Part shown: positions 17,736 through 36,792 of the stretch, piece by piece | Position numbering within the stretch: the stretch's first letter is position 1 | How the letters are laid out: every line of letters starts with the position of its first letter | NCBI GenBank assembly: GCA_964473025.1 | Contig: CAYYMZ010000004.1 | Span: forward strand, 1 to 53,195 | DNA from: an uncultured Candidatus Saccharibacteria bacterium | Lineage (GTDB): Bacteria; Patescibacteriota; UBA1384; DTJR01 | DNA: 53,195 bases | Reading direction: 5' to 3' | Translations under genes and position numbers: made by a program | Notes under the pieces: generated by a model | Databases searched by the model: none | What the model was told of the DNA's origin: nothing | The model's input: the letters and a program-made list of their open reading frames with translations, nothing else

Positions 17736-18128
17736 ATGGATATATTGAGATTAAAAAGGGGCGATCCGGTAATTAAAACGCTTGAGAGCAAAATAAAAAG
17801 TATGCGTAGCGGGCAGGTAATAGGACTTGGTGCCCTCTCGTGGGTGCGTCTCAAGGTTTATGATTTGGAAAAAAAAGAATATAATGAGATAAAGATCGAT
17901 GGTCCGATGGAGCTGGTGAGTTTTACGGCCGTGATCGCGCAAACAACCGAGGGTAAAACCGGCTTACATGCCCATGCAGTTGTGTCGTTAGCGGACTTTT
18001 CAACTAAAGGGGGACATCTAGAAGAAGCCGAGGTTGCAGCTACTTTCGAAGCCATCATTATAGAATCAGAAAAAAAAGTTCAACGTTACTTCGACAGGGA
18101 TATTGGCTTAAATCTAATTAAAAGTTAA
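17736..18128 (+). CDS. PPC/DUF296 domain protein
   Basis: LRLKRGD, GLGAL, ELVS, LHAH, GGHL, TFE. Confidence 0.88.
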   Translation: MDILRLKRGDPVIKTLESKIKSMRSGQVIGLGALSWVRLKVYDLEKKEYNEIKIDGPMELVSFTAVIAQTTEGKTGLHAHAVVSLADFSTKGGHLEEAEVAATFEAIIIESEKKVQRYFDRDIGLNLIKS

Positions 18129-18146
18129 ACTTTAAATTAAAGGAGG

Positions 18147-18279
18147 CCAGGTAGTAGAAATTTGACAAAAAAATATTTTTTAAATAACTCTATAAAATAA
18201 TAATTGGTTTTACGAATTTTTAAACAGAAGAATAAAATAATAAGTGTAGTGAAAAAATAGTCAAATTTTCACTACCTGG
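18147..18279. mobile_element. MITE-like inverted-repeat element, copy 1 (133 bp)
   Basis: CCAGGTAGTAGAAATTTGAC ... GTCAAATTTTCACTACCTGG (18/20 inverted match), GAGG on both sides; second copy at 28251-28381. Confidence 0.6.
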
Positions 18280-18287
18280 GAGGGGCA

Positions 18288-19361
18288 GTGATGAAGTTAA
18301 AGGCTTTGTTTGGTGAAAAGAAATATAGGACTTTATTTATAATTTTAGGCGTATTGGCGGTTTTTATCGTCGTTGGCGCGATTGCCGCCGTCAAATACGG
18401 GCAAAAACCAGTTAAAACGGCTAATAAGTCGGACCAAAAAACCACGCTGGAGGTCTGCCTGTTGGATGGAGCGAGCTACAGTCCGGATCACGCCAAGAGA
18501 CACCCCTTGGCCGTTTCGGTTGAAAATCACCCCGATGCAAGACCTCAGTCGGGATTAATCAAGGCAAGTATTGTCTACGAGGCAATTACGGAAGGCGGAA
18601 TCACTAGATACTTGGCAATTTATGGCCCTCAGGACTCTACCGAGATTGGTCCGATTAGGTCGGCACGTTTGTTTTTTATGGACTGGTTAAAAGAATATGA
18701 CGCATTTTTTGCTCACGCTGGTGGAAATGAGGATGCCTTGGCAAATATCGATAAATACCAGATAAAAAATCTGGACGATGCAAAGGGTTATTTTTACCGA
18801 GACAGCAAAGGTAAAAACGTTGCCTCGGAACATACCCTGTTTTCCTCAACAGAAAAACTGTATGAATATGCCAAGTCCAAGAACTTCGATATAGCCACTT
18901 CAAACTTCACCCCCTTTATCTTCAAAAAGGACGGCCCTGCTCTTGAGGTGGGTGGAAAAGGAGTCGCGATTGATTTTTCAGGTAGTCCGACCTATGCGGT
19001 ACGCTGGAACTATGACCCAAAGGCAAACTCTTACTTAAGGTTCTTATCTGGAACGGAACACAAAGACAGAACGACCGGAGACCAGATTACGGCTAAAAAC
19101 ATCATAATTCAGACGGTTGAGAGAACCTTTCAGCCTACGGGTAGCTACGGCAGTCAAAATTACGTGTTCAAGACAATAGGTGAAGGCAAGGCAACGGTTT
19201 TGCGTGACGGGCAGGTTATCCCTGCAACCTGGAAAAAGGACTCTTTGACCTCTAGAACAAAGTTCTATGATGATACGAACAAAGAAATACAGTTTAACCC
19301 CGGACCGACCTGGTATGAAATTATTAATCCGGACGCCGGTTCTGCTCCTGAATACATATAA
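18288..19361 (+). CDS. DUF3048 domain membrane-anchored protein
   Basis: RHPLAVSVEN, ARPQSGL, VYE..EGGITR, GPIRSAR, HAGG, SEH. Confidence 0.88.
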   Translation: MMKLKALFGEKKYRTLFIILGVLAVFIVVGAIAAVKYGQKPVKTANKSDQKTTLEVCLLDGASYSPDHAKRHPLAVSVENHPDARPQSGLIKASIVYEAITEGGITRYLAIYGPQDSTEIGPIRSARLFFMDWLKEYDAFFAHAGGNEDALANIDKYQIKNLDDAKGYFYRDSKGKNVASEHTLFSSTEKLYEYAKSKNFDIATSNFTPFIFKKDGPALEVGGKGVAIDFSGSPTYAVRWNYDPKANSYLRFLSGTEHKDRTTGDQITAKNIIIQTVERTFQPTGSYGSQNYVFKTIGEGKATVLRDGQVIPATWKKDSLTSRTKFYDDTNKEIQFNPGPTWYEIINPDAGSAPEYI

Positions 19362-19375
19362 ATAGCCACACATTA

Positions 19376-19402
19376 CAAAAACCCCCAAATTGGGGGTTTT
19401 TG
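19376..19402. terminator. Bidirectional intrinsic terminator
   Basis: CAAAAACCCCC-AAATT-GGGGGTTTTTG between convergent genes. Confidence 0.85.
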
Positions 19403-19418
19403 CGTTTATACAGTTCTC

Positions 19419-20030
19419 TTAGATCGAGTTCATGATCGACTTGACCAAATTAACATATGAGGTTGAGTGGTTATAGTTAAAGAGGGCAGAGTCGATATCG
19501 CCTCTGTCGGCACCACCGTTTGCAAGCAGATTAGCGCCTGCAAATACGGCGTCACGCAAGTTACAGATGTCACCACCATCAGAATAAGCTCTGAAGGTTG
19601 AAGGTATAAACTGCATCGGTCCGGTAGCGCCGGAAGGGTTTCTTACACAACCAGAACCCGACTTACCAGTTTCAACCTGGTGAACCGCTTCAATTAGCTT
19701 CCAGTCAATACCATATCTGGCTGCAGCCTCCTGATACAGGGCTCTTAAAGAGGCAAGGTCGGTCGTTTCGGGAGTACTTGTTTGCCTTTCACGAACAACA
19801 ACGTCTCTTGTGCTAACAGCAGATCTGTTGGCATTGTCGCGCTTGGTTGATTCAGATTCGCCAGGAACAATCTCTACCTTTGGTAAATCTCTCTTAATGA
19901 CAAGGTAAGGGTAAACCGTTAACTTAATTGGTTTGACCTGGTCGCTTTGAGCATGCCCGACCCCGGCCGTTAAAGCCAAGGTGGCAACTAGGATCAGCCA
20001 TAAGCTGATCAACCCATATATGTTTTTCAT
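19419..20030 (-). CDS. Secreted lytic transglycosylase (SLT domain)
   Basis: Signal peptide, IDWKLIEAVHQVET, SGATGPMQF, ALFNYNHS..YV. Confidence 0.88.
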   Translation of the reverse strand: MKNIYGLISLWLILVATLALTAGVGHAQSDQVKPIKLTVYPYLVIKRDLPKVEIVPGESESTKRDNANRSAVSTRDVVVRERQTSTPETTDLASLRALYQEAAARYGIDWKLIEAVHQVETGKSGSGCVRNPSGATGPMQFIPSTFRAYSDGGDICNLRDAVFAGANLLANGGADRGDIDSALFNYNHSTSYVNLVKSIMNSI

Positions 20031-20107
20031 TAATTTTCTTTCTCCCTTTATGTCGGGTTTTATTGGTATTTACTCCAATAAAAAAACCCGATTTACGGGA
20101 AGTTCGT

Positions 20108-20135
20108 ATTATAGCACATTTTATTGATTTGTCAA
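20108..20135 (-). promoter_or_regulatory. Promoter of the SLT gene
   Basis: TTGACA-16 bp-TATAAT with extended TG on the minus strand. Confidence 0.65.
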
Positions 20136-20158
20136 GGGTATTATGGTAACATTCTCGT

Positions 20159-20491
20159 ATGGAAGACATATTTTGCCGGATGGTAAAAGGTGAAATACCG
20201 GCAAAAAAGATTTACGAGAACAAGAACATTTTGGTGATTGAGGATATTAATCCAAAGGCAAAAATTCACCTTCTGATATTCCCCAAGCGACACACTGCCT
20301 CCTCGATCAATCAAAACGCCGCAGACCAGGCAGTTGGAGAGGTTTTTGCTGCAACAAGAACTTTAGCTCGAAAATTCAAGGTTGAAAAATCTGGTTACAG
20401 GGTCGTTGTGAACCACGGATCCGATGCGGGACAGAGCGTAAGTCATATTCATTTTCATTTTTTAGCAGGAGAAAAATTAAAAGACATATAG
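20159..20491 (+). CDS. HIT family (histidine triad) protein
   Basis: IFC, DINP, H.LIFPKRH, AGQSVSHIHFHFL. Confidence 0.93.
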   Translation: MEDIFCRMVKGEIPAKKIYENKNILVIEDINPKAKIHLLIFPKRHTASSINQNAADQAVGEVFAATRTLARKFKVEKSGYRVVVNHGSDAGQSVSHIHFHFLAGEKLKDI

Positions 20492-20500
20492 CAGAAAGAG

Positions 20501-20692
20501 GTGAAAGTTTTGATCAAGAGATCCGAAAGTCCAGATGTAACTATCAGAAGATTTTTCAGAGAAGTACAATTAAGCGGTATCCTCACTGAAGCCAAAAAGA
20601 GAAGATATCGCGAAAAAGAACCTTCGAGGCAGAAGAAAAGAGATGCTGCCAAGAGAAAGGCAATTAGAAATGAGTTCAAGCGAGGCTGGTAA
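20501..20692 (+). CDS. rpsU: 30S ribosomal protein S21
   Basis: ES...IRRF...GIL.E.KKRRYREKEPS; basic 63-aa protein in HIT-rpsU-yqeY context. Confidence 0.85.
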   Translation: MKVLIKRSESPDVTIRRFFREVQLSGILTEAKKRRYREKEPSRQKKRDAAKRKAIRNEFKRGW

Positions 20693-20804
20693 AATCAATC
20701 GTATTTTAGCGGTTCTGATTTACGTTGCTGCAATAGTTGCTATTGCAGCAGTAGTTTATTATCTTACGCGACAAAACGTCTCTACGTTTTCAATTAGCAT
20801 GTAA
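20670..20804 (+). CDS. Candidate 44-aa single-TM small protein (below the ORF-track cutoff)
   Basis: MSSSEAGKINRILAVLIYVAAIVAIAAVVYYLTRQNVSTFSISM; overlaps the rpsU end and stops 4 nt before the yqeY ATG. Confidence 0.45.
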   Translation: MSSSEAGKINRILAVLIYVAAIVAIAAVVYYLTRQNVSTFSISM

Positions 20805-20808
20805 AAAT

Positions 20809-21240
20809 ATGATTATAGACAAAATCAATTCTCAAATAATTGACGACTACAAAAGCGGAAACAGTGATCGCAGGGTTCTTCTTCAAACCTTAAAGGCATC
20901 GCTTCTAAACCGTCAAAAAGAGCTAAAGGACGGCTACACCAAGGAGGAAGAGGTTAAGGTCCTTAAGAACGAGCTGAAACAGCGCCAGGAGGCGCTAGAG
21001 CAGTTCGAGAGCGCCGCGCGTGATGATCTGGCACGAAAGAACCAGGCGGAAATAGACGTTATATCTCAGATGCTACCAGAGCTTATGAGCGAAGAAGAGA
21101 TCGACAAAGTTGTTCGGGAGAAAGTCGCTTCCCTTCAAGATAAGTCCTTTGGCAATGCAATGAAAGAAACGATGCAAGAGCTAAAAGGAAGGGCTGACGG
21201 AAAGATCGTCTCTGAATTGGTGAAAAAGTATTTGGTGTAA
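20809..21240 (+). CDS. GatB/YqeY domain protein
   Basis: KQRQEA.EQF..A.R.DLA...E..VI...LPE.MSEEE, MKE...LKGRADGK. Confidence 0.9.
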   Translation: MIIDKINSQIIDDYKSGNSDRRVLLQTLKASLLNRQKELKDGYTKEEEVKVLKNELKQRQEALEQFESAARDDLARKNQAEIDVISQMLPELMSEEEIDKVVREKVASLQDKSFGNAMKETMQELKGRADGKIVSELVKKYLV

Positions 21241-21243
21241 AAA

Positions 21244-22122
21244 GTGAAAGAGCGAAGATTACTTAGAAACATATTTTTGACGGTATTCGTGGTTTTAGTT
21301 TTAACGAATATTGTCTTTTTGGCAATTATTTCCGCAATCGAAAGCACCACTTGGCTCACCCTTTTTCTTTCGATAATGTTTGCCTTACTCGAGACGACCA
21401 TCATAGTTGTTTTAAACACCTACTATAACGATCTTTTAAAAATCGTTGGAAGAAATACGGTCAGGACGATACGACTCGAGAACTTAAATCACCCACTGCT
21501 CTTGAAGCTTTCAAACACCGCGCCGGGTACTTATAATCACTCTTTAAACGTAGCGCAACTCTCAACAAAAGCCGCTAGAAGCATTTCTCTTGATGAAGGT
21601 TTTATTAGAATCGGGGCATATTTCCACGATATTGGAAAATTGAAAAACCCGAGAATTTTTAATGAAAACGCGCCCGGAAATGACTTGAAGACGGATGATC
21701 TAAAGAAAATCTCAAGACAGATTATCGATCACGTTACGTACGGCCAAAAACTCGCTCGAGAATATAACCTACCTGACGAGGTAATCGAATATATCGGTCA
21801 GCACCATGGCAGCTCGGAGATTTACTCCTTGAGAAACAAATTAAACGCTGATAATTTTAACGCCCAATATCCGGGCCCCAAGCCGCTAACACGCCAAAGT
21901 GCAATTTTAATGTTGGCCGATTCTATCGAAGCGCGAGTTAAGGGTTTGAAAGCGATTACAGGCGAGAATATTACCCGTGCAATCGAGAGTGAATTTGCAA
22001 ATAAACTTGGCGGGGGACAGCTTGATTACTCTGGTCTATCGGGGCAGGAAATCAAAAAAATCAAAGAATCGTTTAAAAGCACGATGAATGCAATTTATCA
22101 CAGTAGAAAAATAAAAAAATGA
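21244..22122 (+). CDS. Membrane HD (HDIG) phosphohydrolase, short PgpH-like protein
   Basis: Two TM helices, HPLL..L...APGTYNHS, HDIGK, HHGS, YPGPKP, MLADSIEA. Confidence 0.82.
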   Translation: MKERRLLRNIFLTVFVVLVLTNIVFLAIISAIESTTWLTLFLSIMFALLETTIIVVLNTYYNDLLKIVGRNTVRTIRLENLNHPLLLKLSNTAPGTYNHSLNVAQLSTKAARSISLDEGFIRIGAYFHDIGKLKNPRIFNENAPGNDLKTDDLKKISRQIIDHVTYGQKLAREYNLPDEVIEYIGQHHGSSEIYSLRNKLNADNFNAQYPGPKPLTRQSAILMLADSIEARVKGLKAITGENITRAIESEFANKLGGGQLDYSGLSGQEIKKIKESFKSTMNAIYHSRKIKK

Positions 22123-22496
22123 TAAATTTCCTAGTTAAATCCAAAATAAGCAAACCCGTTTTGAGCATTAAGGAGATTGGTACTGAAATTAGCAAGCACC
22201 TTAAGAGCCGCAAGGTCAAGAACGCATTTGTTGAGGTTGAGATTGTAGGTGGCAGAGCGATGAGGGTTTTGAATTTACATTTTATGAAAAAAGATTATCC
22301 GACGGACGTCTTAAGCTTCCCACTCGTTGAAATTCCAGGGGAAATTTGCTCTAAAGCAAAACATATTGGCACAATTGTATTATGTAATGATATAATAAAA
22401 TCAAACGCGAAAAAAAATGCGAGATTAGAGCGCGATGAATTTATTTTCGTGTTGAAGCACGGTTTAGATCATTTGTTAGGAATTCACCATAACTAG
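22119..22496 (+). CDS. ybeY: rRNA maturation endoribonuclease YbeY
   Basis: LN..F..KDYPTDVLSFP, HGLDHLLGIHH. Confidence 0.88.
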   Translation: MINFLVKSKISKPVLSIKEIGTEISKHLKSRKVKNAFVEVEIVGGRAMRVLNLHFMKKDYPTDVLSFPLVEIPGEICSKAKHIGTIVLCNDIIKSNAKKNARLERDEFIFVLKHGLDHLLGIHHN

Positions 22497-22506
22497 AGGA
22501 GGTTTC

Positions 22507-23751
22507 GTGGAGGTAAGACCAATCGTTGGTTTAGACATCGGAACGACAAAGGTAACTGCTGTTGCTGGTCAAGTGCAGGAAGGCATGATTCAGATAATGG
22601 GAATCGGCAGCGCATCAAACTCAGGACTAAGAAAAGGTGCTGTTGTTGATATCGAAGAAACGGTTTCCTCCATATCTTCCGCAGTTGAGGAAGCAGAAAG
22701 ATCCAGTGGTATTCCCATTGAGACCTGCTACGCCTCGATCTCGGGAAATCAACTGATTTCTCTTGATTCAAAGGGAATAATTGCTGTCTCCCGCGCTGAC
22801 GGAGAGATTGCTGACTCTGACGTCGAAAGGGTCCTGGAGGCGGCTAAATCCGTTGCCCTTCCCCCTAATAATGAAATAATACATATTGTTCCTAAGATGT
22901 ACGTTGTCGATGGCCAGGCGGGCATAAAAGACCCAACTGGCATGTCCGGAATCCGACTTGAGGTACAAGCTCACGTTATTGGCATCTTGACACCGGCATT
23001 AAAAAATTTGAGCAAGGCAATCACCCAGGCCGGATTGGACATTGACGGGATTGTTTATAGCGGGGCGGCCTCTGCTAAAGGGTATTTAAGCAAAAAACAG
23101 AAGGAAATAGGTGTAATTTTAATTGATATCGGCGCTTCAAATACTTCGATCGTTGTTTACGAGGAAGGAACATTAATTCACTCTAAGGTTATTCCGGTCG
23201 GAGCAAACCATATCACCAATGATATTGCCATTGGACTAAAGATCGGATTAGAAGCTGCCGAGAAAATTAAGCTTCGTGAGATTAGCGCAGAAATTGATGA
23301 AATCAAAGAAACAGAAAAGGTTGACTTGTCTAAATATGATAAGAATGAAAAAGAAAAGCCAAACCGACGCTATGTCTGCGAAATTGCCGAAGCGCGCTTA
23401 AACGAGCTGTTTGGGATGATTAAGGATGAATTAAAATTGATTGAACGTGATGAAATGCTGCCGGCCGGTGCGGTTCTAGTCGGTGGCGGCGCCAAGTTGA
23501 ACGGTCTCCCCCAATATGTTAAAAAAACCCTAGGATTACCCGCACAAATCGGGCATCTCGTCTTTGAAGTTTCAGGCATTGTTGACAAAATAGATGATCC
23601 CGAGTACGCTTGTGCCGTTGGCTTAATGTTGTGGGGTATTGACGAAAGTCAAAACATAATGTCTAATAAGGGCAGGCCTAAGATAAGCTTAGGGAAAGTA
23701 GGGGGGGTATTAGATAGAGTCAAAGAAGTATTTAAAAATCTGATCCCTTAA
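22507..23751 (+). CDS. ftsA: Cell division protein FtsA
   Basis: [36 protein letters not shown]-terminal amphipathic helix. Confidence 0.96.
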
Positions 23752-23752
23752 A

Positions 23753-24901
23753 ATGATTAAAGAAGACCTAGAAACATTTGCGACTATCCGAGTCGTCGGA
23801 GTTGGCGGCTCAGGTGGAAACTCAATAGAGCGCATGATTCAAGCCAAGTTAAAGGGCGTTGAATTCATTGCGGTGAATACTGACGCCCAAGCATTGGTCA
23901 ATAACTCGGCTCCGGTTAAGATTCAAATCGGCAAAGAAACAACCAGAGGGCTCGGAGCCGGTTCAAGCGTTGAGGTTGGCAGGAAATCTGTTGAGGAGAA
24001 TAAAGAAGAAATTTACGAGGCCCTTAAGGGGTCTGATATGGTTTTTGTCGGCTATGGTGCCGGTGGCGGAACCGGAACAGGTGCTGGACCAGTTGTAGCA
24101 TCAATTGCTAAAGAGCTGGGTGCTCTAACCGTTGGTATTGCAACCAAGCCATTTAGCTTTGAAGGTATCAGGCGCCGGAAGGTGGCAGAAGAAGGAATTG
24201 AGGAACTTCGCGAAAAGGTTGATACCTTAATTGTCATTCCAAACGACCGTCTTTTACAGGTAATTGATAAAAAAACGTCCTTAACCGATGCATTCTCGGT
24301 TGTTGACGACATTTTGAGACAAGGTGTTCAGGGTATTTCCGACTTGATCACTTTACATGGTATTATCAACGTTGACTTTGCCGACGTTAAAACAATCATG
24401 GCTGATGCCGGATCGGCTTTAATGGGAATCGGCCGCGGATCGGGAGATAACAGGGCTATCGAAGCCGCAAGAGCAGCTATTGAATCGCCGCTACTCGAAC
24501 TCTCAATTGACGGTGCTAAGGGAATATTGTTTAACATCACCGGCGGACCGGATCTTTCAATGTACGAAATTGACGAAGCGGCTAAAATCATCACGGAGGC
24601 CGCTGATCCTGGGGCAAATATTATTTTCGGATCTATTATTGATGAATCGATGGCAGGAGAGGTAAAAATTACTGTCATTGCCACTGGATTTGATGAGGGT
24701 ATCGAACAAAAAAAGATTTCCAAACCACAACCCGTTGAAAACCCCGTTTCACAGCCAAGCTACGTCCGTCCCGAACCAACCGACTATTCGGCATTTATTG
24801 AAAAAGAAGAGCAATCCCAGCCAATGCAACAAGAAGGGGCAGAAGTCGCTGATGCCGATGAGCTTGAAGTACCAGCTTTTATCCGCCGAAAATTAAAGTA
24901 G
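23753..24901 (+). CDS. ftsZ: Cell division protein FtsZ
   Basis: [29 protein letters not shown]-terminal VPAFIRR. Confidence 0.98.
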
Positions 24902-24922
24902 GCAAAAAAAACCAAATGACCA

Positions 24923-24947
24923 AAAACACCCCGATAGGGGGTGTTTT
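24923..24947. terminator. Intrinsic terminator after ftsZ
   Basis: AAAACACCCC / GGGGTGTTTT hairpin. Confidence 0.8.
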
Positions 24948-25005
24948 AGTTCGATAATTGATATTGTCTGTCAAACTCTTTAATATTGAACTAAAAGAGG
25001 AATAA

Positions 25006-25344
25006 ATGGTTGAACAATTAACGCGCACTCCAGAAGAAGAGCACGGTGATGTCCCCAAAGAGGACAGTCGGACGCCAGATCAAAAAAGAGCTGCCTTAGC
25101 TGGTTATAGAATTTTATATCACAACACCGATAAACTTTCGCCGAGTAACTACAGCGACTACATAGCCTTACTAGTAGAAGAACAGAGGGATTTTCAAGCA
25201 AGCGGGCCACTAACGAGTAGTGAATGGGAGGATTATTTAGAGGTATCAAAAAAATCTTCGGGTGGAACAGCGGACGAAAATGAGATTAAGAAGTTTGTAA
25301 CACTGCACAGCAGATTAGAAAAATTTGGAAAGGCCGATAGTTAA
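25006..25344 (+). CDS. Hypothetical protein
   Basis: AGAGG SD before ATG; 112-aa ORF filling the gap; no motif recognised. Confidence 0.6.
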   Translation: MVEQLTRTPEEEHGDVPKEDSRTPDQKRAALAGYRILYHNTDKLSPSNYSDYIALLVEEQRDFQASGPLTSSEWEDYLEVSKKSSGGTADENEIKKFVTLHSRLEKFGKADS

Positions 25345-25354
25345 ATCAATTATC

Positions 25355-27070
25355 CTACCAGCCCCCTCCGCCGCCGCCTCCGCCGCCGCCGCCTGAGAAC
25401 CCCCCTCCGCCACTGCCGGAGCTTGACGGGGATGATGAGATCGTAGATGACATATGCTGCGACATTCCCGTCACCATTGTATTAAACGAACTCTCGTTAA
25501 AAGATGAAATTGCGCCCACGTACCATATAGGATGATATGTGGCAAAGTATTTTTCACCGTAGATGTCTTTCATTTTTTTAATCCAAAGCTCGGTCATGCC
25601 AAACATCATGGCATAAGGTAAAAATTTTTCAAATAGATTTTCTTTTTCAAAAAATCTTTGCCTGTATTTTTCGGCAGTATTTAGATATAGCTTAAAACCC
25701 AAAACCCGATAGTAGAATTTTCCCCCTTTAAGCGACCTCTTTGGCATTAAGAATGAAAATATAATAAAGATGGCAGACGAAAGAAATGCATTTAGAGCCA
25801 AATATCCCGAAATAACAAAAGAAATAAAAATACCCATAAAAAGCAAAACCCCTGCAACGATGAAGAGAATCTGTCCAACACGGCTATAAGGCATCAGGTA
25901 ATCTTTCTCCACCAGGTCGCGTTTAACCATAGATCCCAATCCCGCAATGTTTTTATAAAAATTATTTTTTAAATCTGACATCATAATCTCGTCTTTTGCA
26001 CCAAACAAATCTCCTAGAAGCTTTTCCTCGTCAGCCGTTATGCCCTTTGTTTTGCCTTTGAGACGCGATAGTTTAAAATCTTTTGAGGTAAACACACCTT
26101 TATTATCAATTTCCTCGATTTTTAAAGCATTCTTAACCGCTAGATCAATTATTGACGCGGAAATATATTGTGTTTTTAGAATTCCATCTGAATAAACCAT
26201 ACCCAGTGACATTGGGGAGAGTTTATCTGGAACATCAAATTCCGGGGCAATAGTTGGGTTAACTTTTGGGTCACGGCCAAATTTGCGCCAGATGATGTAA
26301 CAAAATGCGAAGACAAAAATCGTAATCAGAAAATAAAAATACTTCCCGTATATTTCAAAAAACGAGGGCTGATAGGCGGTTACGATACCCTTTGGGAAGG
26401 TGGCAGAAAGGGTTATGCCTTCCCTAGCTTTTAATCTTTCGATAGATTTTACCTGAATTGTCTGGTCGTCGATCCATTTTAATGTCGCGTTACTTGATGA
26501 CTGGCTCCCAAGCAAACCGGAATACAGAGAAGTATTAATATTATTTTGTTTTATACCGTCGGGAAAAGTAATATTAGACGTGAAATTATCAGTTTCAATA
26601 TCCCAATAATTTCCGTTCAGGTTCCAATAAAACTCATCAAAATCCGGGTTATTCGTACGGATACCGTTTGTAATCGAATACTTTATTTCGTAGTTGTTTA
26701 CGCCTTGCACGATTTTGTTGGGATCGCCGATTTTCCATGTAATCGTCTTGTTAATCCGGTCGTTTGAGGCCGTATATTTATAGGATTTACCGTTAAAATC
26801 GGTGATGCTTAAAAGTTTAATGTGAATATCTGTTTGTTTACCGGCTTCAGGAGAGTAAAAGGTAGGCAGAATCCTGAAAATTCCGTGTTTTTCAACGCAT
26901 AGCCCGCAATCGGCCTCTATCTTTTCGTCAATCGTTAAAGATGAATCTCGATTAACCGTTATGTTTGAATCAAAGTTCTTAATATACCAATAATCGACAC
27001 TTTCACGGGCAAATGATTTTAAAGGCAGAAAGAGCGCAAATAGAAACAAAATTAGCAATATCTTTTTCAT
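25355..27070 (-). CDS. DUF2207 family membrane protein
   Basis: Signal peptide, HGIFR, EFYWN, GRDP, GFKLYL, FEKFLPYA, C-terminal GGGFSGGGGGGGGGGGW. Confidence 0.92.
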   Translation of the reverse strand: MKKILLILFLFALFLPLKSFARESVDYWYIKNFDSNITVNRDSSLTIDEKIEADCGLCVEKHGIFRILPTFYSPEAGKQTDIHIKLLSITDFNGKSYKYTASNDRINKTITWKIGDPNKIVQGVNNYEIKYSITNGIRTNNPDFDEFYWNLNGNYWDIETDNFTSNITFPDGIKQNNINTSLYSGLLGSQSSSNATLKWIDDQTIQVKSIERLKAREGITLSATFPKGIVTAYQPSFFEIYGKYFYFLITIFVFAFCYIIWRKFGRDPKVNPTIAPEFDVPDKLSPMSLGMVYSDGILKTQYISASIIDLAVKNALKIEEIDNKGVFTSKDFKLSRLKGKTKGITADEEKLLGDLFGAKDEIMMSDLKNNFYKNIAGLGSMVKRDLVEKDYLMPYSRVGQILFIVAGVLLFMGIFISFVISGYLALNAFLSSAIFIIFSFLMPKRSLKGGKFYYRVLGFKLYLNTAEKYRQRFFEKENLFEKFLPYAMMFGMTELWIKKMKDIYGEKYFATYHPIWYVGAISSFNESSFNTMVTGMSQHMSSTISSSPSSSGSGGGGFSGGGGGGGGGGGW

Positions 27071-27252
27071 ACCTTTATATTAGCACTACCTCAAAAATTT
27101 TGTGATAGAATCAAAAAACGAAAAGCAATCTATTGCGAGAAAGAAAAAATTGCAATCATTTACGAAAAAGGTGACTATCGGATTATGACCTCGTATGATC
27201 CGGATTCAAAAGGCGTAAATTTAACCGTCAAAAATAAGCTCTAAACCTCTTT

Positions 27253-27285
27253 AAAAAGCACAAGGGCCGACGCAAGCGTCGGCCC
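27253..27285 (-). terminator. Intrinsic terminator
   Basis: GGGCCGACGC/GCGTCGGCCC stem with a T tract on the minus strand. Confidence 0.75.
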
Positions 27286-27345
27286 AGGGCAATTCCTCTA
27301 TCCCGAGGAGGGGTGCGACAGATTTTTCTGCGTCTAGATCTCGTC

Positions 27346-27585
27346 TCAGCGACGGAGACCGAGGTGGTTCGCGAGGCGCGCGTGGGCGATGCAGGCAGGC
27401 AGTGTCTGCCCGCCGCTGGTAAGTTCGACGTGAACCACGCCATCCCTCTCCACCGCCATCTGCAGGTCCGAAATACTGCGCCCGACTGGAGCACCCTTGT
27501 CGAACAGTGCCTTTACTGCCGACCCGACGCTCCTGTGCGTCGACGCAACCCGACCATTCAGCGCGAACAACATCTCTGCTGCCAT
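27346..27585 (-). CDS. GC-rich hypothetical protein (79 aa, MAAEMLFALNG...)
   Basis: Own promoter, GGGAGG SD before ATG 27585, own terminator; start revised from the track's 27678. Confidence 0.6.
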   Translation of the reverse strand: MAAEMLFALNGRVASTHRSVGSAVKALFDKGAPVGRSISDLQMAVERDGVVHVELTSGGQTLPACIAHARLANHLGLRR

Positions 27586-27649
27586 TTCTGTAAACCCTCC
27601 CGTGGATCTGATTACTCGACCGTCCTCTACAACTTGGACAGTTCGAAAC

Positions 27650-27678
27650 ATCATAACACAAATTTTAGCAAAAGTCAA
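27650..27678 (-). promoter_or_regulatory. Sigma70-type promoter
   Basis: TTGACT-17 bp-TATGAT with extended TG. Confidence 0.65.
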
Positions 27679-27726
27679 GATTCAAAGCAAAAACATCTGT
27701 GTTTTTTAGCTAAAATGTTAAAACAC

Positions 27727-27777
27727 TTGACAGCACTATATTGTGGTTTATAGTTAAATAAGCACAAGATATGGTGT
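27727..27777 (+). promoter_or_regulatory. nrdR promoter with two tandem NrdR boxes
   Basis: CAGCACTATATTGTGG (27731-27746) and GCACAAGATATGGTGT (27762-27777) fit acaCwAtATaTwGtgt, 31 bp apart, overlapping TTGACA..TATAGT. Confidence 0.85.
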
Positions 27778-27798
27778 TTTTTAATTTACGCTCAAAAT

Positions 27799-28242
27799 AT
27801 GCTTTGTCCCAGATGTAAAAGTAAAAAAGTTCAGGTTATCGACTCGCGCGACGTTGACGACAGAACCATCAGACGCCGACGTGAGTGCGACGAATGCAAG
27901 CATCGCTTTACTTCATATGAGCATTTTGAGCAACCAAAGGTTCAGGTTGAAAAACGAGATGGGACGACAGAACCGTTTGACAGGGAAAAAATAATCCAAG
28001 GCGTAATGATCGCTTCAAACGGCAGAATTACGGACGATAAAATATTTGACATTGCCGACGAAATAGAGCAAAAAGTAATAGAGTCCGCCGAAGCACAAAT
28101 TGCCAGCCGTAAGATTGGCAATATGGTTATTGCTCGTCTAAAAAAGCTAGATAAAGTATCATATATCAGATTTGCCTCAGTTTATAAAAATTTCGAGAAT
28201 CTTGATTCTTTTGAAGAAGAACTGGTAAAACTAAAGAAATAA
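27799..28242 (+). CDS. nrdR: Transcriptional repressor NrdR
   Basis: CPRC, VIDSR, IRRRREC..C, RFTSYE, ATP cone, YIRFASVY. Confidence 0.97.
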   Translation: MLCPRCKSKKVQVIDSRDVDDRTIRRRRECDECKHRFTSYEHFEQPKVQVEKRDGTTEPFDREKIIQGVMIASNGRITDDKIFDIADEIEQKVIESAEAQIASRKIGNMVIARLKKLDKVSYIRFASVYKNFENLDSFEEELVKLKK

Positions 28243-28250
28243 TTTGGAGG

Positions 28251-28381
28251 CCAGGCAGTAGAAATTTGACAAAATATTTATTTTTAAAACGAAGAAAAAA
28301 CATTATCAGAGATTTTATAAAATAAGCAAAACGAAAACAACAATAATTCTAGTGAAAAATAGTCAAATTTTCACTACCTGG
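28251..28381. mobile_element. MITE-like inverted-repeat element, copy 2 (131 bp)
   Basis: CCAGGCAGTAGAAATTTGAC ... GTCAAATTTTCACTACCTGG, GAGG on both sides. Confidence 0.6.
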
Positions 28382-28391
28382 GAGGGGAAAA

Positions 28392-31300
28392 ATGCCACGA
28401 GCCAGTGCAAAACAAGTGATTGCCAAATCATCTGTCGGGAAAAAACAGGGGGTCTTAAAAAGTAAAAAGGTGAAACGGGGTCTGGAAATTAAACGGCACT
28501 TTACGGCCGCGGGCAAAGACCCACTCAGCGATGTTTTATATGAATCCCGTTCTTGTAAGATTGTAAACCCTGACGGCACGGTGGTTTTTGAGGCAAAAGA
28601 TGTTGAGGTCCCAAAAAACTGGTCGCGCGTAGCAACGGACATTTTAATTTCCAAATATTTACGCAAAAGTGGTGTACCACAATTTGATAGCCACGGCGTT
28701 TTAATTAAAGAAAAGGACGGCAAGGCACATCTGGGAGGAGAAAAATCCGTGAAACAGGTGGTAAACCGTTTGGCAAAATGTTGGCGGTGGTGGGGAGAAA
28801 AATATAAATATTTTGCTACCAAGGCGGATGCACAAAATTTTGAGGACGAACTTAAATTTATGCTCGTCAACCAATATGCCGCACCGAATTCACCTCAATG
28901 GTTTAATACCGGATTGGCTATCTCTTACGGGATTAAAGGTTCGCCGCAGGGACACTGGTACGCGGATCCCAAAACTGGAAAACTAAAACAGTCCGAAGAT
29001 TCATATACCCATCCTCAACCGCATGCATGCTTTATCCAATCGGTTAAAGATGACCTTGTAAATCAGGGTGGAATTTTTGATCTTGTAACGCGCGAAGCGA
29101 GGATTTTTAAATACGGGTCCGGCTCGGGTTCTAACTTTTCATCGCTTCGAGGCAAAGGGGAGCCATTATCCGGCGGTGGCACATCCTCTGGACTGATGAG
29201 CTGGCTTTATATTTTTGACCGTTCTGCCGGAGCAATTAAGTCAGGCGGAACGACCAGACGCGCTTCGAAGATGGTAATTTTAAATATTGATCATCCCGAT
29301 ATCGAAGAATTTATCAATTGGAAATACCGTGAAGAACAAAAAGCGGCGGCACTAATCGCCGCCGGTTACAACGGCTCCTACGAAGGAGAGGCTTATCAAA
29401 CCGTGTCAGGGCAGAATTCCAACAATACGGTGCGTGTTGACGATCCATTTATGGAAGCGGTAGAGGCAGACGATGATTGGCACCTGCGCTGGAGAACAGA
29501 TATGAATCATATCGGCAAAACAATTAAGGCAAGGTACCTTTGGGATAAAATTGCCACCGCCGCTTACCACTGCGGCGACCCCGGACTTCAGTTTGACACA
29601 AACGTGAATAGTTGGAATACATGTCTTACGTCCGGACGCATAAACGGATCCAATCCCTGCAGTGAGTTTATGTTTTTGGATGACTCCTCTTGCAACTTAG
29701 CTTCGTTAAATCTCATGAAATTTTATGATTTAAAGGAGAAGAAATTTGATGTTGAGTCATTTTGCCACGCGACACGGCTATGGACAGCCGTGCTTGAAAT
29801 CTCTGTTCTAATGGCACAATTTCCGTCATATGAAATCGCCAAAAAAAGTTATCTCTTCAGACCGCTGGGGCTGGGATATGCAAACCTCGGAGCACTATTG
29901 ATGGTTATGGGACAACCATACGATTCGGATACAGGCAGAAATGCGGCGGCGTGCATTACCGCTATCATGACCGGGGAATCATACGCCACCTCGGCCGAGA
30001 TGGCCAAAGCGCTTTCCCCCTTTAAAGAATATGAAAAAAACAAAAGCGATATGCTTCGTGTTATCAGAAACCATCGCCGCGCTGTATTTAATGCTGCTGA
30101 CACAGAATTCGAAGATTTAAACATCATCCCCTACAAACTGGATGACAAATTATGCGATGATTATTTGCTTCAAGCGGCAAGGCACGCGTGGGACAAAGCA
30201 TTAGTAGAGGGCGGACTTCACGGATTTAGAAATGCCCAAGTCACTCTTTTGGCACCAACCGGAACGATCGGTTTAACGATGGATTGCGATACCACTGGCG
30301 TCGAGCCGGATTACTCTATAGTAAAGTTCAAAAAGCTAGCAGGGGGAGGATTCTTCAAAATCATCAACCAATCGGTACCGATGGCTCTTGATCATCTCGG
30401 TTACACCAAAACCGAAGTTGCTGATATTATCCGCTACGTTATCGGAACGGGAAGCTTGGACTTATCACCCCACATCAACAGAGCGTCACTGGTAAAAAAA
30501 GGATTTGACGATGCAACGATAGAAAAAATCGAAAAAATCCTGCCCGGTGTTTTCGACTTGAGTCAAGCATTTAATCGGGAAAACGTCGGTGAAGAACTTT
30601 TGGATAAAATTGGGATAAAGAAAGAGAAATATAGCGGTCCGGCCTTCGACCTGCTGTCTGCCTTAGAATTTTCTCCCGAACAAATTGAAGAAGCAAAAAA
30701 TCATATCTGCGGAATGATGACCGTAGAAGACGCACCGCGGCTTCACGATGAACACTTGCCAATTTTTGACTGCGCCAACAAGTGCGGCGCATACGGCAAG
30801 AGGTTTATCGAGGCCACGGGGCATGTTGGGATGATGTCCGCAATTCAACCCTACCTTTCAGGGGCAATCTCCAAAACGGTTAATGTTCCGTCTGACGCAA
30901 AAGTCGAGGATATTGAAAAAATTTACTTTGATTCTTGGAAAAAAGGCCTGAAGGCGGTTGCTATCTATCGCGACGGTTCCAAGATGGCCCAACCGTTAAG
31001 TTCACAGGAAGACAAAAAGACGAAGGAAAGAGAAAAGGAAATTGTCATTCAGTACAAACCATTAAGACGCAAAATGCCTAAAGAGAGAATGTCGATTACC
31101 CGTAAGGTGATTATCGGCGGGCACAAACTTTACCTAACGGTTGGATTATACGATGACGGGACACCGGGGGAAATATTTATCACTATGAACCAGCAGGGAA
31201 GCTTCACGGCCGGCATGATTGACTCGTTTGCCAAAATACTTTCAATCGGTTTGCAATACGGCGTTCCCGTGCAAACGATTGTTTCCCAACTACGGCATAT

Positions 31301-31667
31301 GCGTTTTCAGCCAATGGGTTATACTGGTGATCAGGATATCTCCAACACTTCGTCGATTTCAGATTTTGTGGCGCAGTGGCTTGATAAAAAGTTTTTACAG
31401 GGCGGGGTTAAAACGATGATGCTTCCGTTTGAGGAAAACCCCGATAAAAAGAAGACCCCTGGCGAGAAAATAAAAAACGAAACAACTCCGGTAGCAGAGC
31501 AGACCCCGCTTGAAGGAATGGGCTCGATTGAAGAAGATCTGGAATCGAAGAACAAAGAACTCGGTTTTACCGGCGATACCTGCTCTGAGTGCGGGTCGGC
31601 AATGATGGTTCAAAACGGTAAATGCCTAAAGTGCGTTAATTGCGGGGCAACAACAGGGTGCTCATGA
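28392..31667 (+). CDS. nrdJ: Adenosylcobalamin-dependent (class II) ribonucleotide reductase
   Basis: PNSPQWFN, HACFI, SGGTTRRA, NPCSE, CNLAS, APTGTI, AISKTVN, YRDGSK, C-terminal CSEC..CVNC; no small subunit nearby. Confidence 0.95.
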   Translation: MPRASAKQVIAKSSVGKKQGVLKSKKVKRGLEIKRHFTAAGKDPLSDVLYESRSCKIVNPDGTVVFEAKDVEVPKNWSRVATDILISKYLRKSGVPQFDSHGVLIKEKDGKAHLGGEKSVKQVVNRLAKCWRWWGEKYKYFATKADAQNFEDELKFMLVNQYAAPNSPQWFNTGLAISYGIKGSPQGHWYADPKTGKLKQSEDSYTHPQPHACFIQSVKDDLVNQGGIFDLVTREARIFKYGSGSGSNFSSLRGKGEPLSGGGTSSGLMSWLYIFDRSAGAIKSGGTTRRASKMVILNIDHPDIEEFINWKYREEQKAAALIAAGYNGSYEGEAYQTVSGQNSNNTVRVDDPFMEAVEADDDWHLRWRTDMNHIGKTIKARYLWDKIATAAYHCGDPGLQFDTNVNSWNTCLTSGRINGSNPCSEFMFLDDSSCNLASLNLMKFYDLKEKKFDVESFCHATRLWTAVLEISVLMAQFPSYEIAKKSYLFRPLGLGYANLGALLMVMGQPYDSDTGRNAAACITAIMTGESYATSAEMAKALSPFKEYEKNKSDMLRVIRNHRRAVFNAADTEFEDLNIIPYKLDDKLCDDYLLQAARHAWDKALVEGGLHGFRNAQVTLLAPTGTIGLTMDCDTTGVEPDYSIVKFKKLAGGGFFKIINQSVPMALDHLGYTKTEVADIIRYVIGTGSLDLSPHINRASLVKKGFDDATIEKIEKILPGVFDLSQAFNRENVGEELLDKIGIKKEKYSGPAFDLLSALEFSPEQIEEAKNHICGMMTVEDAPRLHDEHLPIFDCANKCGAYGKRFIEATGHVGMMSAIQPYLSGAISKTVNVPSDAKVEDIEKIYFDSWKKGLKAVAIYRDGSKMAQPLSSQEDKKTKEREKEIVIQYKPLRRKMPKERMSITRKVIIGGHKLYLTVGLYDDGTPGEIFITMNQQGSFTAGMIDSFAKILSIGLQYGVPVQTIVSQLRHMRFQPMGYTGDQDISNTSSISDFVAQWLDKKFLQGGVKTMMLPFEENPDKKKTPGEKIKNETTPVAEQTPLEGMGSIEEDLESKNKELGFTGDTCSECGSAMMVQNGKCLKCVNCGATTGCS

Positions 31668-33671: not shown

Positions 33672-36560
33672 GTGAAAGATATTGATTCCCTTGACGATCT
33701 AAATTCTGAACAAAAAAAGGCAGTTACTCATAAAAACGGTCCGTTGCTTTTAATCGCCGGTGCGGGGACAGGAAAAACTACTGTTATCACCCGTAGGATT
33801 GTCCATATCATCTCAAAGAAATGGGCAAAGCCGTCGGAAATATTGGCGCTTACATTCACGGAGAAAGCTGCCGCTGAGATGGAACAGCGCGTCGATGTTC
33901 TGGTCCCTTACGGATATGTTGATATTCAAATTTCAACCTTTCACGCTTTTGGTGACCGCCTACTCCGTGACTACGCTATCAATCTGGGCTTACCCGCAAG
34001 TTTTAAGATTTTAACTCAAATTGAACAGGCAATTTTTATGCGGGAAAACATCTTCGCCTTCGATTTAAAACATTTTCGGCCAATTTCAAACCCACTGGGA
34101 CACATAGAGGCCTTGCTCAAACATTTTTCACGCCTGAAAGACGAACTGGTCTCTCCCGAACATTACCTGCGCTGGGCTCAAACACAAAATTCAAAGCTAA
34201 AAACCAAAAAGAAGACTTCGCAAGAAGTTATTGAAGCAGAAAAAAAACTAGAGCTTGCCGGTGCTTACCAGCAATACAATGATTTGATGATTCAGGCGGG
34301 CAATCTGGATTTTGGCGATCAAATATTTTTAACCTATAAATTGCTAAAGGAAAACAAAAGTGTTTTGAGCGAATGCCGGAAGCGCTATAAATATATTTTG
34401 GTAGATGAATTTCAGGATACAAACTATGCTCAAAATGAAATTGTGAAATTACTTGCTACAAAAGAGGGAAATATAACTGTTGTCGGAGATGACGATCAAT
34501 CAATTTACAGATTCCGGGGAGCGGCTATATCGAATATTCTTGATTTTAAAAAATACTATAAGCAGGTGTCAGAAATTGTACTGAAAAAGAATTACCGGTC
34601 AACTTGTGAAATTTTAAACGCAGCATATCAATTAATTCAAAGCAATAACCCCGACCGTCTTGAATATAGAAATCATATTGATAAAAAATTGACATCCACA
34701 AGGCGGGGGGAGAGCCCCGAGCTTTTGCATTGCGATACGTTATCGTGCGAGGCGGATTCGGTTACTGCCAAAATCCTCGAATTAAAAAAGCGGAAAAAGT
34801 ATGGCAATAACGATTTTGCCATTTTGGTTAGGGCCAACAGCCACGCTGAACCTTTTATCCAATCACTGAAGGTCAATGGCTTGCCTTATGCTTTCTCCGG
34901 CGCGAGCGGTCTTTTTTCAACGGCTGAGATAAAAATGTTAGTCGCGTTTTTAAAAACGCTTGTTTACGACGATGACAATTTAAGCTTTTACTCCCTCGCA
35001 ACCAGCGAACTTTATTCGATTCCGCATGCAGCAATGACGACCTTTTATACGAAAGCACAACGGTCTAACAGGTCTGTGCTCGAAATTGCCACCGCGGCGA
35101 AAGAAGAGGTTGGCCAATACCAAGAGAAGATAACCGAGATTGTTCAAGATATCGAAGAGTTCAGACAAAAAAAGAATGAACCGGTTGGCGAGGTGTTATA
35201 TGAATATTTAGTACAAAAGAAATATCTAAAACAACTGTCTAAAAACGCAACAGTTGAAGATGAAATCAAAGTTTATAATATTGCTAAATTCTTTGACCGG
35301 ATCAGCCAATTCAATCATTCAAGCGTCGACCGCGGCGTAATAGCATTCTTGAATGATTTGGAGCTGATTTTGCAATTAAGCGACGAAATTCAAACAAGCG
35401 ATATCGATCCAGACCTCGACGCGATTAACGTATTGACTGTCCACGCCGCCAAGGGGCTCGAGTGGCCCGTGGTCTTTATCGCCAATTGTGTTTCAGACCG
35501 TTTTCCATCCAGAAACCAAAGCGAGCCAATACCGATTCCACAGGATCTCGTAAAAGAGCGTCTGCCCAAAGGGGATTTTCATCTGCAGGAAGAAAGGCGT
35601 TTATTTTACGTTGGGGCAACCCGAGCCAAAGATTTTCTGTATTTAAGCTCCGCTGATGATTATGGAGGAAAAAGGGTGAAGAAGCTTTCCTTATTTGCCT
35701 TAGAGCTATTAAATGAGCCGGATCAGGAAAAAATCAAACACCGCTTGTCGCCGATGCAAAAAATCGAACGGTTCAAAAAAATCAAAGAGGCAAAAATCAA
35801 TTTATCAAATAGGTTTACAGGTGATATTCTAAAGCTCTCCCGCAATCAGATTGACGATTATTATTCCTGCCCCAAGAAATTTTATTTCGCCCACGTCGTT
35901 AAGATTCCGCTTTTAGAGAATCAAAATTTAATGTACGGTACAGCGATCCATGGCGCTCTTGATCACTATTTCGCCCGCAAAATAAGTGGGGAAAGGCCGG
36001 GTTTGAAACAAATTCTCGAAGATTATAATCAGGCCTTCAAAAACGTCGGGTTCATAACGAGGGAACAGGAAGAAAAAAGGCACGACGAAGGCATCAAAGT
36101 ATTGACCAGATTTTTTGCCGAGGAAAGTCGGGATCCGCTTAAAGTGCAAAAAGTTGAGGAACGCTTCGAATTTTGCGAGGGTAAAGTTAAAATAACCGGC
36201 CGCTATGACCTTATTTGCAAGCATGGGGACTTAGATGAAATTGTTGATTTTAAAACATCAAAGGTAGATGCACAAAAAGATGCTGACAGAAGAATCAAGC
36301 AGTCGTCGCAGATGATGGTCTATGCTTTAGCATGGCGCTCTAAATACGGTAATATTCCCAAAACAACTCTTCATTTCATTGAGTCAGGATTAAAGGGCGA
36401 GATAATATTTAGCGAAAAAGATTTGATTAAAACCAAGGAAATGATCGGAAGCGTCGCGGCCGGTATAAGAGCCGCAGAGCTTAAGGCAACGCCTGGACGT
36501 TTTGAATGCAAGCAGTGTCCGTATAGGGATATTTGCCCGGATAGTGAAAAATCGGCTTAA
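33672..36560 (+). CDS. UvrD/REP-type helicase with C-terminal PD-(D/E)XK nuclease
   Basis: AGAGTGKT, LTFT, DEFQD, GDDDQSIYRFRGA, NYRS, AKGLEW, EERRLFYVGATRA; GRYD..IVDFKT; CPKK...CKQCPYRDIC. Confidence 0.92.
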   Translation: MKDIDSLDDLNSEQKKAVTHKNGPLLLIAGAGTGKTTVITRRIVHIISKKWAKPSEILALTFTEKAAAEMEQRVDVLVPYGYVDIQISTFHAFGDRLLRDYAINLGLPASFKILTQIEQAIFMRENIFAFDLKHFRPISNPLGHIEALLKHFSRLKDELVSPEHYLRWAQTQNSKLKTKKKTSQEVIEAEKKLELAGAYQQYNDLMIQAGNLDFGDQIFLTYKLLKENKSVLSECRKRYKYILVDEFQDTNYAQNEIVKLLATKEGNITVVGDDDQSIYRFRGAAISNILDFKKYYKQVSEIVLKKNYRSTCEILNAAYQLIQSNNPDRLEYRNHIDKKLTSTRRGESPELLHCDTLSCEADSVTAKILELKKRKKYGNNDFAILVRANSHAEPFIQSLKVNGLPYAFSGASGLFSTAEIKMLVAFLKTLVYDDDNLSFYSLATSELYSIPHAAMTTFYTKAQRSNRSVLEIATAAKEEVGQYQEKITEIVQDIEEFRQKKNEPVGEVLYEYLVQKKYLKQLSKNATVEDEIKVYNIAKFFDRISQFNHSSVDRGVIAFLNDLELILQLSDEIQTSDIDPDLDAINVLTVHAAKGLEWPVVFIANCVSDRFPSRNQSEPIPIPQDLVKERLPKGDFHLQEERRLFYVGATRAKDFLYLSSADDYGGKRVKKLSLFALELLNEPDQEKIKHRLSPMQKIERFKKIKEAKINLSNRFTGDILKLSRNQIDDYYSCPKKFYFAHVVKIPLLENQNLMYGTAIHGALDHYFARKISGERPGLKQILEDYNQAFKNVGFITREQEEKRHDEGIKVLTRFFAEESRDPLKVQKVEERFEFCEGKVKITGRYDLICKHGDLDEIVDFKTSKVDAQKDADRRIKQSSQMMVYALAWRSKYGNIPKTTLHFIESGLKGEIIFSEKDLIKTKEMIGSVAAGIRAAELKATPGRFECKQCPYRDICPDSEKSA

Positions 36561-36792
36561 TAACAGAGTTGTTAAAACTTGATAAAAAAGCCAGTATTTA
36601 TTTACAATTAGATTTCGGTTTCTCCTTAGCCAGCCAGATGGCTGCCGATTTTCTACTACCGGGTTTGTCCGGATGCAATTATCTAAAGCTTGATTTTGAC
36701 TCCAATATAGCCCATAATTATAAATAATAAACCAACTAAAGGCGGTTTGTGGACGCAACGCAAACTTAAACCTTAACAAAAAAGGAGGTGGG

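Follow-up and report, generated by a model that had tools for sequence, protein, structure and literature searches.

Why should two inverted-repeat elements of nearly equal length sit inside the ribosome-binding sites of two functionally unrelated genes in a streamlined bacterial genome? The elements lie at 18147–18279 and 28251–28381 of a 53,195-nucleotide stretch (called the window here) from an uncultured Candidatus Saccharibacteria bacterium. The window is contig C4 of an assembly of 806 kb in 31 contigs that is 94% complete (genome label G000). The original prediction, made from the letters of the window, offered two answers: a family of MITEs (miniature inverted-repeat transposable elements) that targets GGAGG sites, which it then rebuilds, or a repeated two-state element controlling translation. 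In our analysis, we observed a dispersed repeat family with target duplications, empty orthologous sites, positions at translation-start signals, and a long, conserved partner that carries a nuclease gene. The two elements are thus very probably non-autonomous, MITE-like copies of a very small, GIY-YIG-associated mobile family that is found across the Patescibacteria.

The predicted coordinates, ends and lengths (133 and 131 bp) of the two elements proved exact. Both copies belong to subtype A1 and lie on the plus strand, with CCAGGYAGTAGAAATTTGAC at the 5′ end and GTCAAATTTTCACTACCTGG at the 3′ end. The left and right arms occupy 18147–18166 and 18260–18279 in copy 1 and 28251–28270 and 28362–28381 in copy 2, and 18 of the 20 positions agree between the arms. 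A scan of the window with the arm pattern, allowing up to three mismatches, returned these four arms only, and none of 100 shuffled sequences gave any match. GAGG is present at all four flanks, as had been claimed (plus strand; 18143–18146 and 18280–18283 for copy 1, 28247–28250 and 28382–28385 for copy 2). At copy 1, the upstream GAGG is the core, now orphaned, of what was originally a GGAGG ribosome-binding site. The downstream one, together with the terminal GG of the element, reads GGGAGG and serves as the working ribosome-binding site of a DUF3048-family gene (18288–19361, plus strand), whose start, a GTG at 18288 or an ATG at 18291, lies 8 nt past the element. At copy 2, the downstream GAGG is the ribosome-binding-site core of nrdJ (28392–31667, plus strand), which encodes a class II (B12-dependent) ribonucleotide reductase and starts 10 nt past the element. 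On the other side, the stop codon of a PCC-domain gene (17736–18128, plus strand) lies 18 nt upstream of copy 1, and that of nrdR (27799–28242, plus strand) 8 nt upstream of copy 2.

Removal of the element plus one GAGG was predicted to restore a clean ribosome-binding site, and this is the state seen in relatives. The nrdR–nrdJ junction was free of the element in all 12 genomes of the same order in which nrdR was found (two further genomes of the order gave no nrdR match). It consists there of the stop codon, GGAGGGG or a similar sequence, and the start codon, for example stop-TAAGGAGGGGAT-ATG. In one relative (G003), the junction reads TAGTAAGGAGGGGATATG, identical to the sequence of this genome with the element and one GAGG taken out. 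Upstream of the DUF3048 gene, the arm core was absent within 400 nt in 11 of 11 relatives (11 of the 16 returned loci were examined), and the loci that retain the PCC-domain neighbor read GGAGGGG before the start. Empty alleles, which the original prediction had named as a test of a MITE family, therefore exist at both loci.

An arm search of the whole assembly identified 12 copies of the same family (family A), in one of which the left end is degenerate. The copies fall into two subtypes, whose arms end in ...TTTGAC or ...TTTGAT, and the lengths range from 128 to 138 bp. All 12 copies lie between open reading frames (ORFs) on the element's own strand. In ten of them, a start codon (one being ATT) is found 5–10 nt past the right end, following GAGG, GAGA or GGAG. 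The further copies are thus placed non-randomly, in line with the original prediction. Perfect 4-bp duplications flank six of the 11 two-ended copies (GAGG five times, GGAG once), and two further copies have abutting 3-bp repeats (GAG on contig C27 and GGA at C22:7012). At nine loci, the inferred empty spacers measure 12–140 nt, so other intergenic positions were open to the elements; yet the insertions are on the ribosome-binding-site core. By our own arithmetic, and assuming uniform intergenic insertion, the chance of the GGAG/GAGG register in the six perfect cases is approximately 1e-7. At C1:14254–14265, the gene after one of the copies encodes a 376-residue membrane protein and lacks any ATG, GTG or TTG close to its ribosome-binding site; an ATT 8 nt past this element may be the start codon.

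In the second answer, the right arm has two possible partners, the left arm and an internal arm copy, and the choice between them tunes access to the Shine-Dalgarno sequence. The alternative pairing is present in both window copies and in relatives. In copy 1, an internal third arm copy, TAGTGAAAA, at 18247–18255 (plus strand) pairs with 18266–18274, and its counterpart in copy 2 at 28350–28358 (plus strand) pairs with 28368–28376, giving the predicted local hairpin TAGTGAAAA/TTTTCACTA at the right end of each. Conserved arms around drifting interiors, and elements in the same place at homologous genes of different genera, would also suit a switch. The predicted folds favor the long terminal stem, however: in plus-strand RNA it reaches −28.8 and −22.5 kcal mol−1 (z −2.7 and −2.6) for copies 1 and 2, and it is the minimum-energy fold in 11 of the 11 genome copies folded. 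The long stem was said to cover the first Gs of the Shine-Dalgarno sequence; the two Gs preceding GAGG are indeed paired, a point in favor of a switch, but GAGG itself remains unpaired. In silico removal of the element did not systematically alter the predicted accessibility of the Shine-Dalgarno sequence or start codon at ten loci. An Rfam scan of the whole window, with E values up to 1, returned two tRNAs and one chance match, and nothing at the elements. The genes 3′ of the family A copies have no functional link: they encode two pilin-like proteins, a 2-hydroxyacid dehydrogenase, a dCMP deaminase, the DUF3048 protein, NrdJ, a DUF5652 protein and small membrane proteins. Orthologues in relatives work without the element, and the same arms flank a nuclease gene and bear target duplications, as described below. 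Together, these observations make a two-state translational switch highly improbable. An effect of the element on transcript stability or translation may well exist, although nothing that we saw requires one. The TTGACA noted in the left arm is present, and we considered it as a mobile promoter; this was rejected, as the plus strand has no −10 partner and promoter-like matches were not above those in shuffled sequences. No terminator-like sites were found in the promoter/terminator scan.

What, then, could have moved the elements? The arms occur in six of 61 relatives, and there, too, GAGG and a start codon come after the element. One of these genomes (G029) has a long copy of 321 bp with an ORF of 87 residues, of which residues 3–72 match the Pfam GIY-YIG family with an E value of 1.3e-18. 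This copy lies between tgt and the next gene, and the site is empty in all three family-mates that have tgt. A search with the G029 protein found small GIY-YIG genes in 121 of the 162 genomes of the class, usually in several copies. The seven best of the listed loci (62–100% identity; seven genomes from four families) were all bracketed by the arms, and none of the next 23 loci was. We collected thirteen long copies, all in other genomes, which measure 306–327 bp apart from one of 423 bp; a 210-bp element with a 34-residue ORF was excluded from the set. Every one of the thirteen has an intact GIY-YIG ORF of 86–91 amino acids and arms on both sides. The ORF starts 0–12 nt from the left arm and usually ends −1 to 3 nt from the right arm. 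The original prediction had suggested a search for a long copy with the same ends around a transposase: such long copies exist, but their gene encodes a GIY-YIG nuclease and no recognised transposase.

The nuclease gene is well conserved. The 13 proteins share 31 invariant columns, and the median non-synonymous difference between the genes is 0.23, against 0.83 for synonymous differences, which indicates purifying selection. The 20-bp arms are almost unchanged across the long copies. A tree was calculated from 42 GIY-YIG proteins (the 13 arm-bearing ones, 22 others from the class and seven from this genome, with an internal-stop locus and a frameshifted gene omitted), and the 13 arm-bearing proteins form one clade in it with support of 95/92. 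In all 11 long copies that abut a start signal, the ORF is oriented toward the host gene. Gene-less copies share genomes with nuclease-bearing ones, for example in G029, G114, G148 and G151. The best PDB sequence matches of the nuclease are UPF0213 proteins (E value 1.8e-6) and SLX1; its NCBIfam matches are all below threshold. We also considered a start of the nuclease at a GTG within the arm, driven by the upstream orphan Shine-Dalgarno sequence. This was discarded: only a single long copy has the GTG in frame, L022 and L023 have intervening stop codons, and approximately 25 nt separate the ATG from the flank.

The two arms of an element differ in all copies at the same two adjacent positions, with AG in one arm and GA in the other (for example, 18155–18158 versus 18268–18271). 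The result is an irregularity of one G-T and one A-C pair in the stem on either strand, which is conserved across phylum-level groups. The assignment of the AG and GA versions to the arms flips relative to the nuclease ORF, with a split of four to three in the first seven long copies.

The family is widespread and patchy. Its arms occur in 19 of the 162 genomes of the class. An exact-pattern scan with one genome per species found them in at least 119 stretches, which are metagenome-assembled and mostly labeled as Patescibacteria groups. We pooled 163 non-redundant elements, each defined by two arms 60–700 bp apart (unpaired arms were excluded). Their lengths are trimodal, with classes at 60–97 bp, at 111–155 bp (mode 130–134 bp) and at 306–327 bp, plus the single element of 423 bp. 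Perfect 4-bp duplications flank 90 of the 163, and a further 22 have abutting 3-bp repeats. Random re-pairing of the flanks gave a mean of 19 and a maximum of 29 perfect cases, and an offset control gave one in 162. The duplicated sequences differ between insertions (ATGA, AAAG, CGTG, CAAG, TTTG and others), as is expected of true target duplications.

In 124 of the 163 elements, exactly one end has an ORF of at least 50 codons starting no more than 18 nt away; in eight, both ends do, and in 31, neither does. Of the 124, 74 continue past the element with TATG, its ATG serving as the start codon, and TATG is present at both flanks in 56 of the 74. In another 21 of the 124, GAGG comes after the element and a start codon lies 5–12 nt further on. 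Among 47 perfect TATG cases, only two have a Shine-Dalgarno-like motif in the 21 nt upstream, and none reads through in frame from the element into the host protein. Elements of the ribosome-binding-site class mostly have arms with ...TTTGA (23 of 27) and those of the start-codon class mostly arms with ...TTCGA (50 of 78); related genomes contribute to these counts, which are not independent. Hence the target varies by sub-lineage, although it always coincides with the translation-start signal: the start codon TATG is the commonest target in the family as a whole, and the Shine-Dalgarno sequence is targeted in some lineages only. Whichever signal is targeted, the duplication rebuilds it. The proposal of a MITE that targets GGAGG thus holds for the lineage of this genome, but not for all of the family.

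Elements are also found in the same position at homologous genes of different genera. A gene for a 54-residue membrane protein is occupied both in this genome (C6:9350) and in L005 (G007), and pilin-like genes are likewise occupied here (C2:64696 and C2:66152) and in L116/L020 (G002). The interiors of such cross-genus pairs show identities of 0.52–0.66, which is the background level save for one close pair. These elements may reflect very old occupancy or repeated insertion at favored genes, and the interiors fit either. At L005 (1460–1634, minus strand), a single ribosome-binding site has two elements: a full 134-bp copy and, 5 nt upstream of it, a mini or remnant element of 36 bp made up of an arm, a short loop and an arm. 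Minis of 60–97 bp are common elsewhere in the family. The sequence AGCGGAG precedes the element at four loci from four genomes.

A 4-bp duplication at inverted ends is typical of DDE transposons, and the draft assemblies could lack a conventional transposase that moves the elements as ordinary MITEs; the GIY-YIG gene would then be a passenger or homing gene that invaded some copies. Many copies do occur without a cognate nuclease, in this genome as well as in G002 and G142, and the arms and the ORF are separable, since the interior is able to flip with respect to the arm types. The absence of a transposase from the window, which had been noted before, extends to the whole assembly for the seven transposase Pfam families that we searched, including the Y1 family (PF01797): none was matched. 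Among the 163 elements, 423 bp is the most that any arm pair encloses. In the long element, the interior is taken up by the nuclease ORF, the arm-bearing nucleases make up a single clade, and at least two other GIY-YIG clades carry inverted repeats of their own (for example, that of C3:38677 and L046). A conventional transposase with a passenger nuclease is accordingly improbable, and a family associated with the nuclease itself remains the preferred explanation.

Several observations weigh against that explanation. A genome-wide search found no arm-bracketed nuclease gene in the assembly. GIY-YIG nucleases are not known to carry out strand transfer, and so do not account chemically for the 4-bp duplication. 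In G029, the downstream flank is GAGG in all five copies and the upstream flank is GAGG in none of them; the upstream flanks at L006, L009, L012, L015 and L018 comprise TCGG (twice), GACG, AACG and GGAG. The preference for GAGG at the time of insertion can only be inferred from the register, because selection against insertions in gene interiors would by itself enrich ribosome-binding sites among GAGG sites, of which 511 of 5062 in this genome are so placed. The interiors of the copies in this genome are also diverged: their median identity is 0.66 and the maximum 0.78 (random pairs give 0.57 ± 0.05), and no near-identical copies were found among them. Despite this divergence, the arms carry only 0–3 mismatches per copy. 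Contigs from four other lake-water samples showed no insertion polymorphism, as they carry the elements and skip none; these are contigs only, in which rare empty alleles are invisible. Judging from their interiors, the family A copies of this genome are not recent, and near-intact arms around drifted interiors suggest that the arms are preserved in place by selection, gene conversion or repeated copy replacement. Some joints in the lake-water contigs link arms of different copies. Foreign contig ends pile up at 34388–34424 of the window, which is the conserved LVDEFQDTN helicase motif of a UvrD-like gene and an ordinary feature.

Preservation of this kind raises the question of whether the elements were once mobile and are now maintained by the host, as has been proposed for the NTS repeats of Neisseria. 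They might influence recombination or DNA uptake as sites recognized by a nuclease, or act on the transcript as processing or stability signals. Nearly perfect arms with interiors at background identity, a constant length of 128–138 bp, eight paralogous small GIY-YIG genes that persist in this genome, and occupancy of the same genes across genera would all fit such a role, and the paper on the Ssn nucleases of Neisseria argues for domestication of this sort (PMC11893778). The orthologous sites are empty in close relatives, though, the elements occur patchily (19 of 162 genomes), and the occupied genes have no functional link. We consider host maintenance unlikely on this evidence.

The genome also contains a sister family of inverted repeats. 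Family B has six copies with arms CCCGGTAGTAGAAAATCGAC, and five of the six are flanked by perfect 4-bp repeats (TCAA, TCAA, TAAG, CAAG and TTTG). The window holds one copy at 36536–36663 (128 bp, minus strand), with arms CCCGGTAGTAGAAAATCGGC and its partner and TTTG at 36532–36535 and 36664–36667. It lies within the last codons of a UvrD/PD-(D/E)XK gene (33672–36560), the stop codon of which is now inside the element; the protein ends in ...CPDSEKSA, within the element, and the original end was presumably ...CPDAII. The target beside this insertion, TCCGGATG, resembles the element's own end, CCCGGATAGTG. At C8:12789, C1:58685, C3:46531 and C26:813, a duplicated TTGA falls on what looks by eye like the −35 hexamer of a promoter serving the adjacent gene (for example, TTGACT-17-TATTCT), and at C8:29856 the duplicated TAAG includes the stop codon of a gene of 1166 residues. 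A general preference of family B for −35 boxes was not retained, since it applies by eye to only four of the six copies, the others being in a gene end or on a stop codon.

The eight other small GIY-YIG loci of this genome show 29–51% identity, and one of them (C7:30198) is frameshifted. The loci C3:38677, C7:30198, C6:15769, C12:14370, C2:41284 and C6:8415 were inspected. Some of these genes have inverted repeats of their own, for example CCCCAACACCCTTTACAT matching at 18 of 18 positions. The 18/18 inverted repeat of C3:38677 belongs to a gene that groups with L046, which has a similar repeat. The genes at C2:41284 and C12:14370 lie between direct repeats that resemble duplicated ends of tRNA genes, and that at C6:8415 adjoins a tRNA gene.

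From these results, we propose the following course of events. The full-length form is a unit of approximately 306–327 bp that consists of two 20-bp arms and, with almost nothing else between them, one gene for a single-domain GIY-YIG nuclease of 86–91 residues. The nuclease would move both this unit and the gene-less copies, probably by acting on the arms when these are folded in single-stranded DNA, in the manner of its Ssn relatives. Insertion duplicates 4 bp of the target, sometimes 3 bp, and in this lineage the target is the GAGG core of the Shine-Dalgarno sequence, which may be preferred at insertion beyond mere survival under selection. The downstream duplicate, joined to the terminal GG, yields GGGAGG at the native distance from the start codon, so that the host gene retains its ribosome-binding site. 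The element would then be carried within the operon transcript, where it forms a long hairpin at no predicted cost. The copies of this genome are probably old, inactive insertions, given that no cognate nuclease gene and no near-identical copies were found.

A bolder form of this proposal is possible, although we give it somewhat less than an even chance. The unit of approximately 310 bp, made up of an arm, the GIY-YIG gene and an arm, might be an autonomous transposon with an Ssn-like, hairpin-recognizing nuclease as its only protein. It would then be the smallest self-mobilizing element known and would represent a new class of transposition enzyme. Its sub-lineages would be tuned to the start signal of the host (GAGG where Shine-Dalgarno sequences are used, TATG where they are not), with the duplication hiding the element from selection. 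If the GIY-YIG protein does move the elements, this would add a new enzymatic route to transposition and set a lower size limit for autonomous mobile elements. The landing sites suggest how a parasite may persist in a streamlined genome of 0.8 Mb: it would occupy a ribosome-binding site or start codon and rebuild it. Gene callers may be misled in Patescibacteria, because the elements come between genes and the upstream signals that seem to belong to them, and leave behind orphan copies of the Shine-Dalgarno sequence or ATG.

Several known systems share features with these elements. Insertion without target duplication is the rule for IS200/IS605 and REP-RAYT-type elements; in contrast, 4-bp duplications are seen here and no Y1 transposase (PF01797) is present in this genome. 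The likeness to REP/REPIN-RAYT and IS200/IS605 lies in dispersed intergenic hairpin repeats combined with a small gene flanked by the same repeats, and in an orientation bias that suggests a strand-specific process (PMC11893778). The Correia elements of Neisseria are bacterial MITEs that are co-transcribed with genes, according to the background given in PMC3049150. Like MITEs of this type, the present elements are short, AT-rich and non-coding, with inverted ends, a strongly paired fold and target duplications, and they occur in many dispersed copies, both intergenic and inside operon transcripts. They differ from the Correia type in that the target is a translation-start signal (GAGG or TATG) rebuilt by the duplication, and in that the full-length partner of approximately 310 bp encodes a GIY-YIG nuclease instead of a transposase of a known family.

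The original prediction regarded the window elements as a candidate for an undescribed system. Our literature search found no description of these elements, of an inverted-repeat transposon encoding a GIY-YIG nuclease, or of a MITE that targets Shine-Dalgarno sequences or start codons; it did not extend to the supplements of the Ssn paper, which may list Patescibacteria homologues. The pairing of nuclease and hairpin repeat is, by contrast, partly in print. Among published systems, that of the single-strand-specific Ssn nuclease and its NTS/SRM hairpin repeats comes closest (Chenal et al., Nat Commun 2025, PMC11893778). The main text of that paper reports no target duplications, empty sites, transposition or targeting of start signals, and mentions neither Patescibacteria nor start codons. 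The Ssn repeats are self-contained hairpins of approximately 30 nt, whereas the two non-palindromic 20-nt arms described here pair across the whole element, and the NTS motif has no match in this genome with up to four mismatches. Ssn proteins are single-domain GIY-YIG proteins of 94 residues; they bind the hairpin repeat only when the DNA is single-stranded, and they cleave a few nucleotides upstream of it. Their genes are flanked by the same repeat, a layout that the authors call identical to that of an insertion sequence. The present family shares with Ssn the single-domain GIY-YIG protein of approximately 90 residues (94 amino acids in Neisseria, 86–91 here), the gene bracketed by inverted, hairpin-forming repeats, the same repeat scattered gene-less through the genome, and a separate repeat for each protein clade. 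Such paired specificities of nuclease and hairpin are potential tools for single-stranded DNA, as argued in the Ssn paper (PMC11893778).

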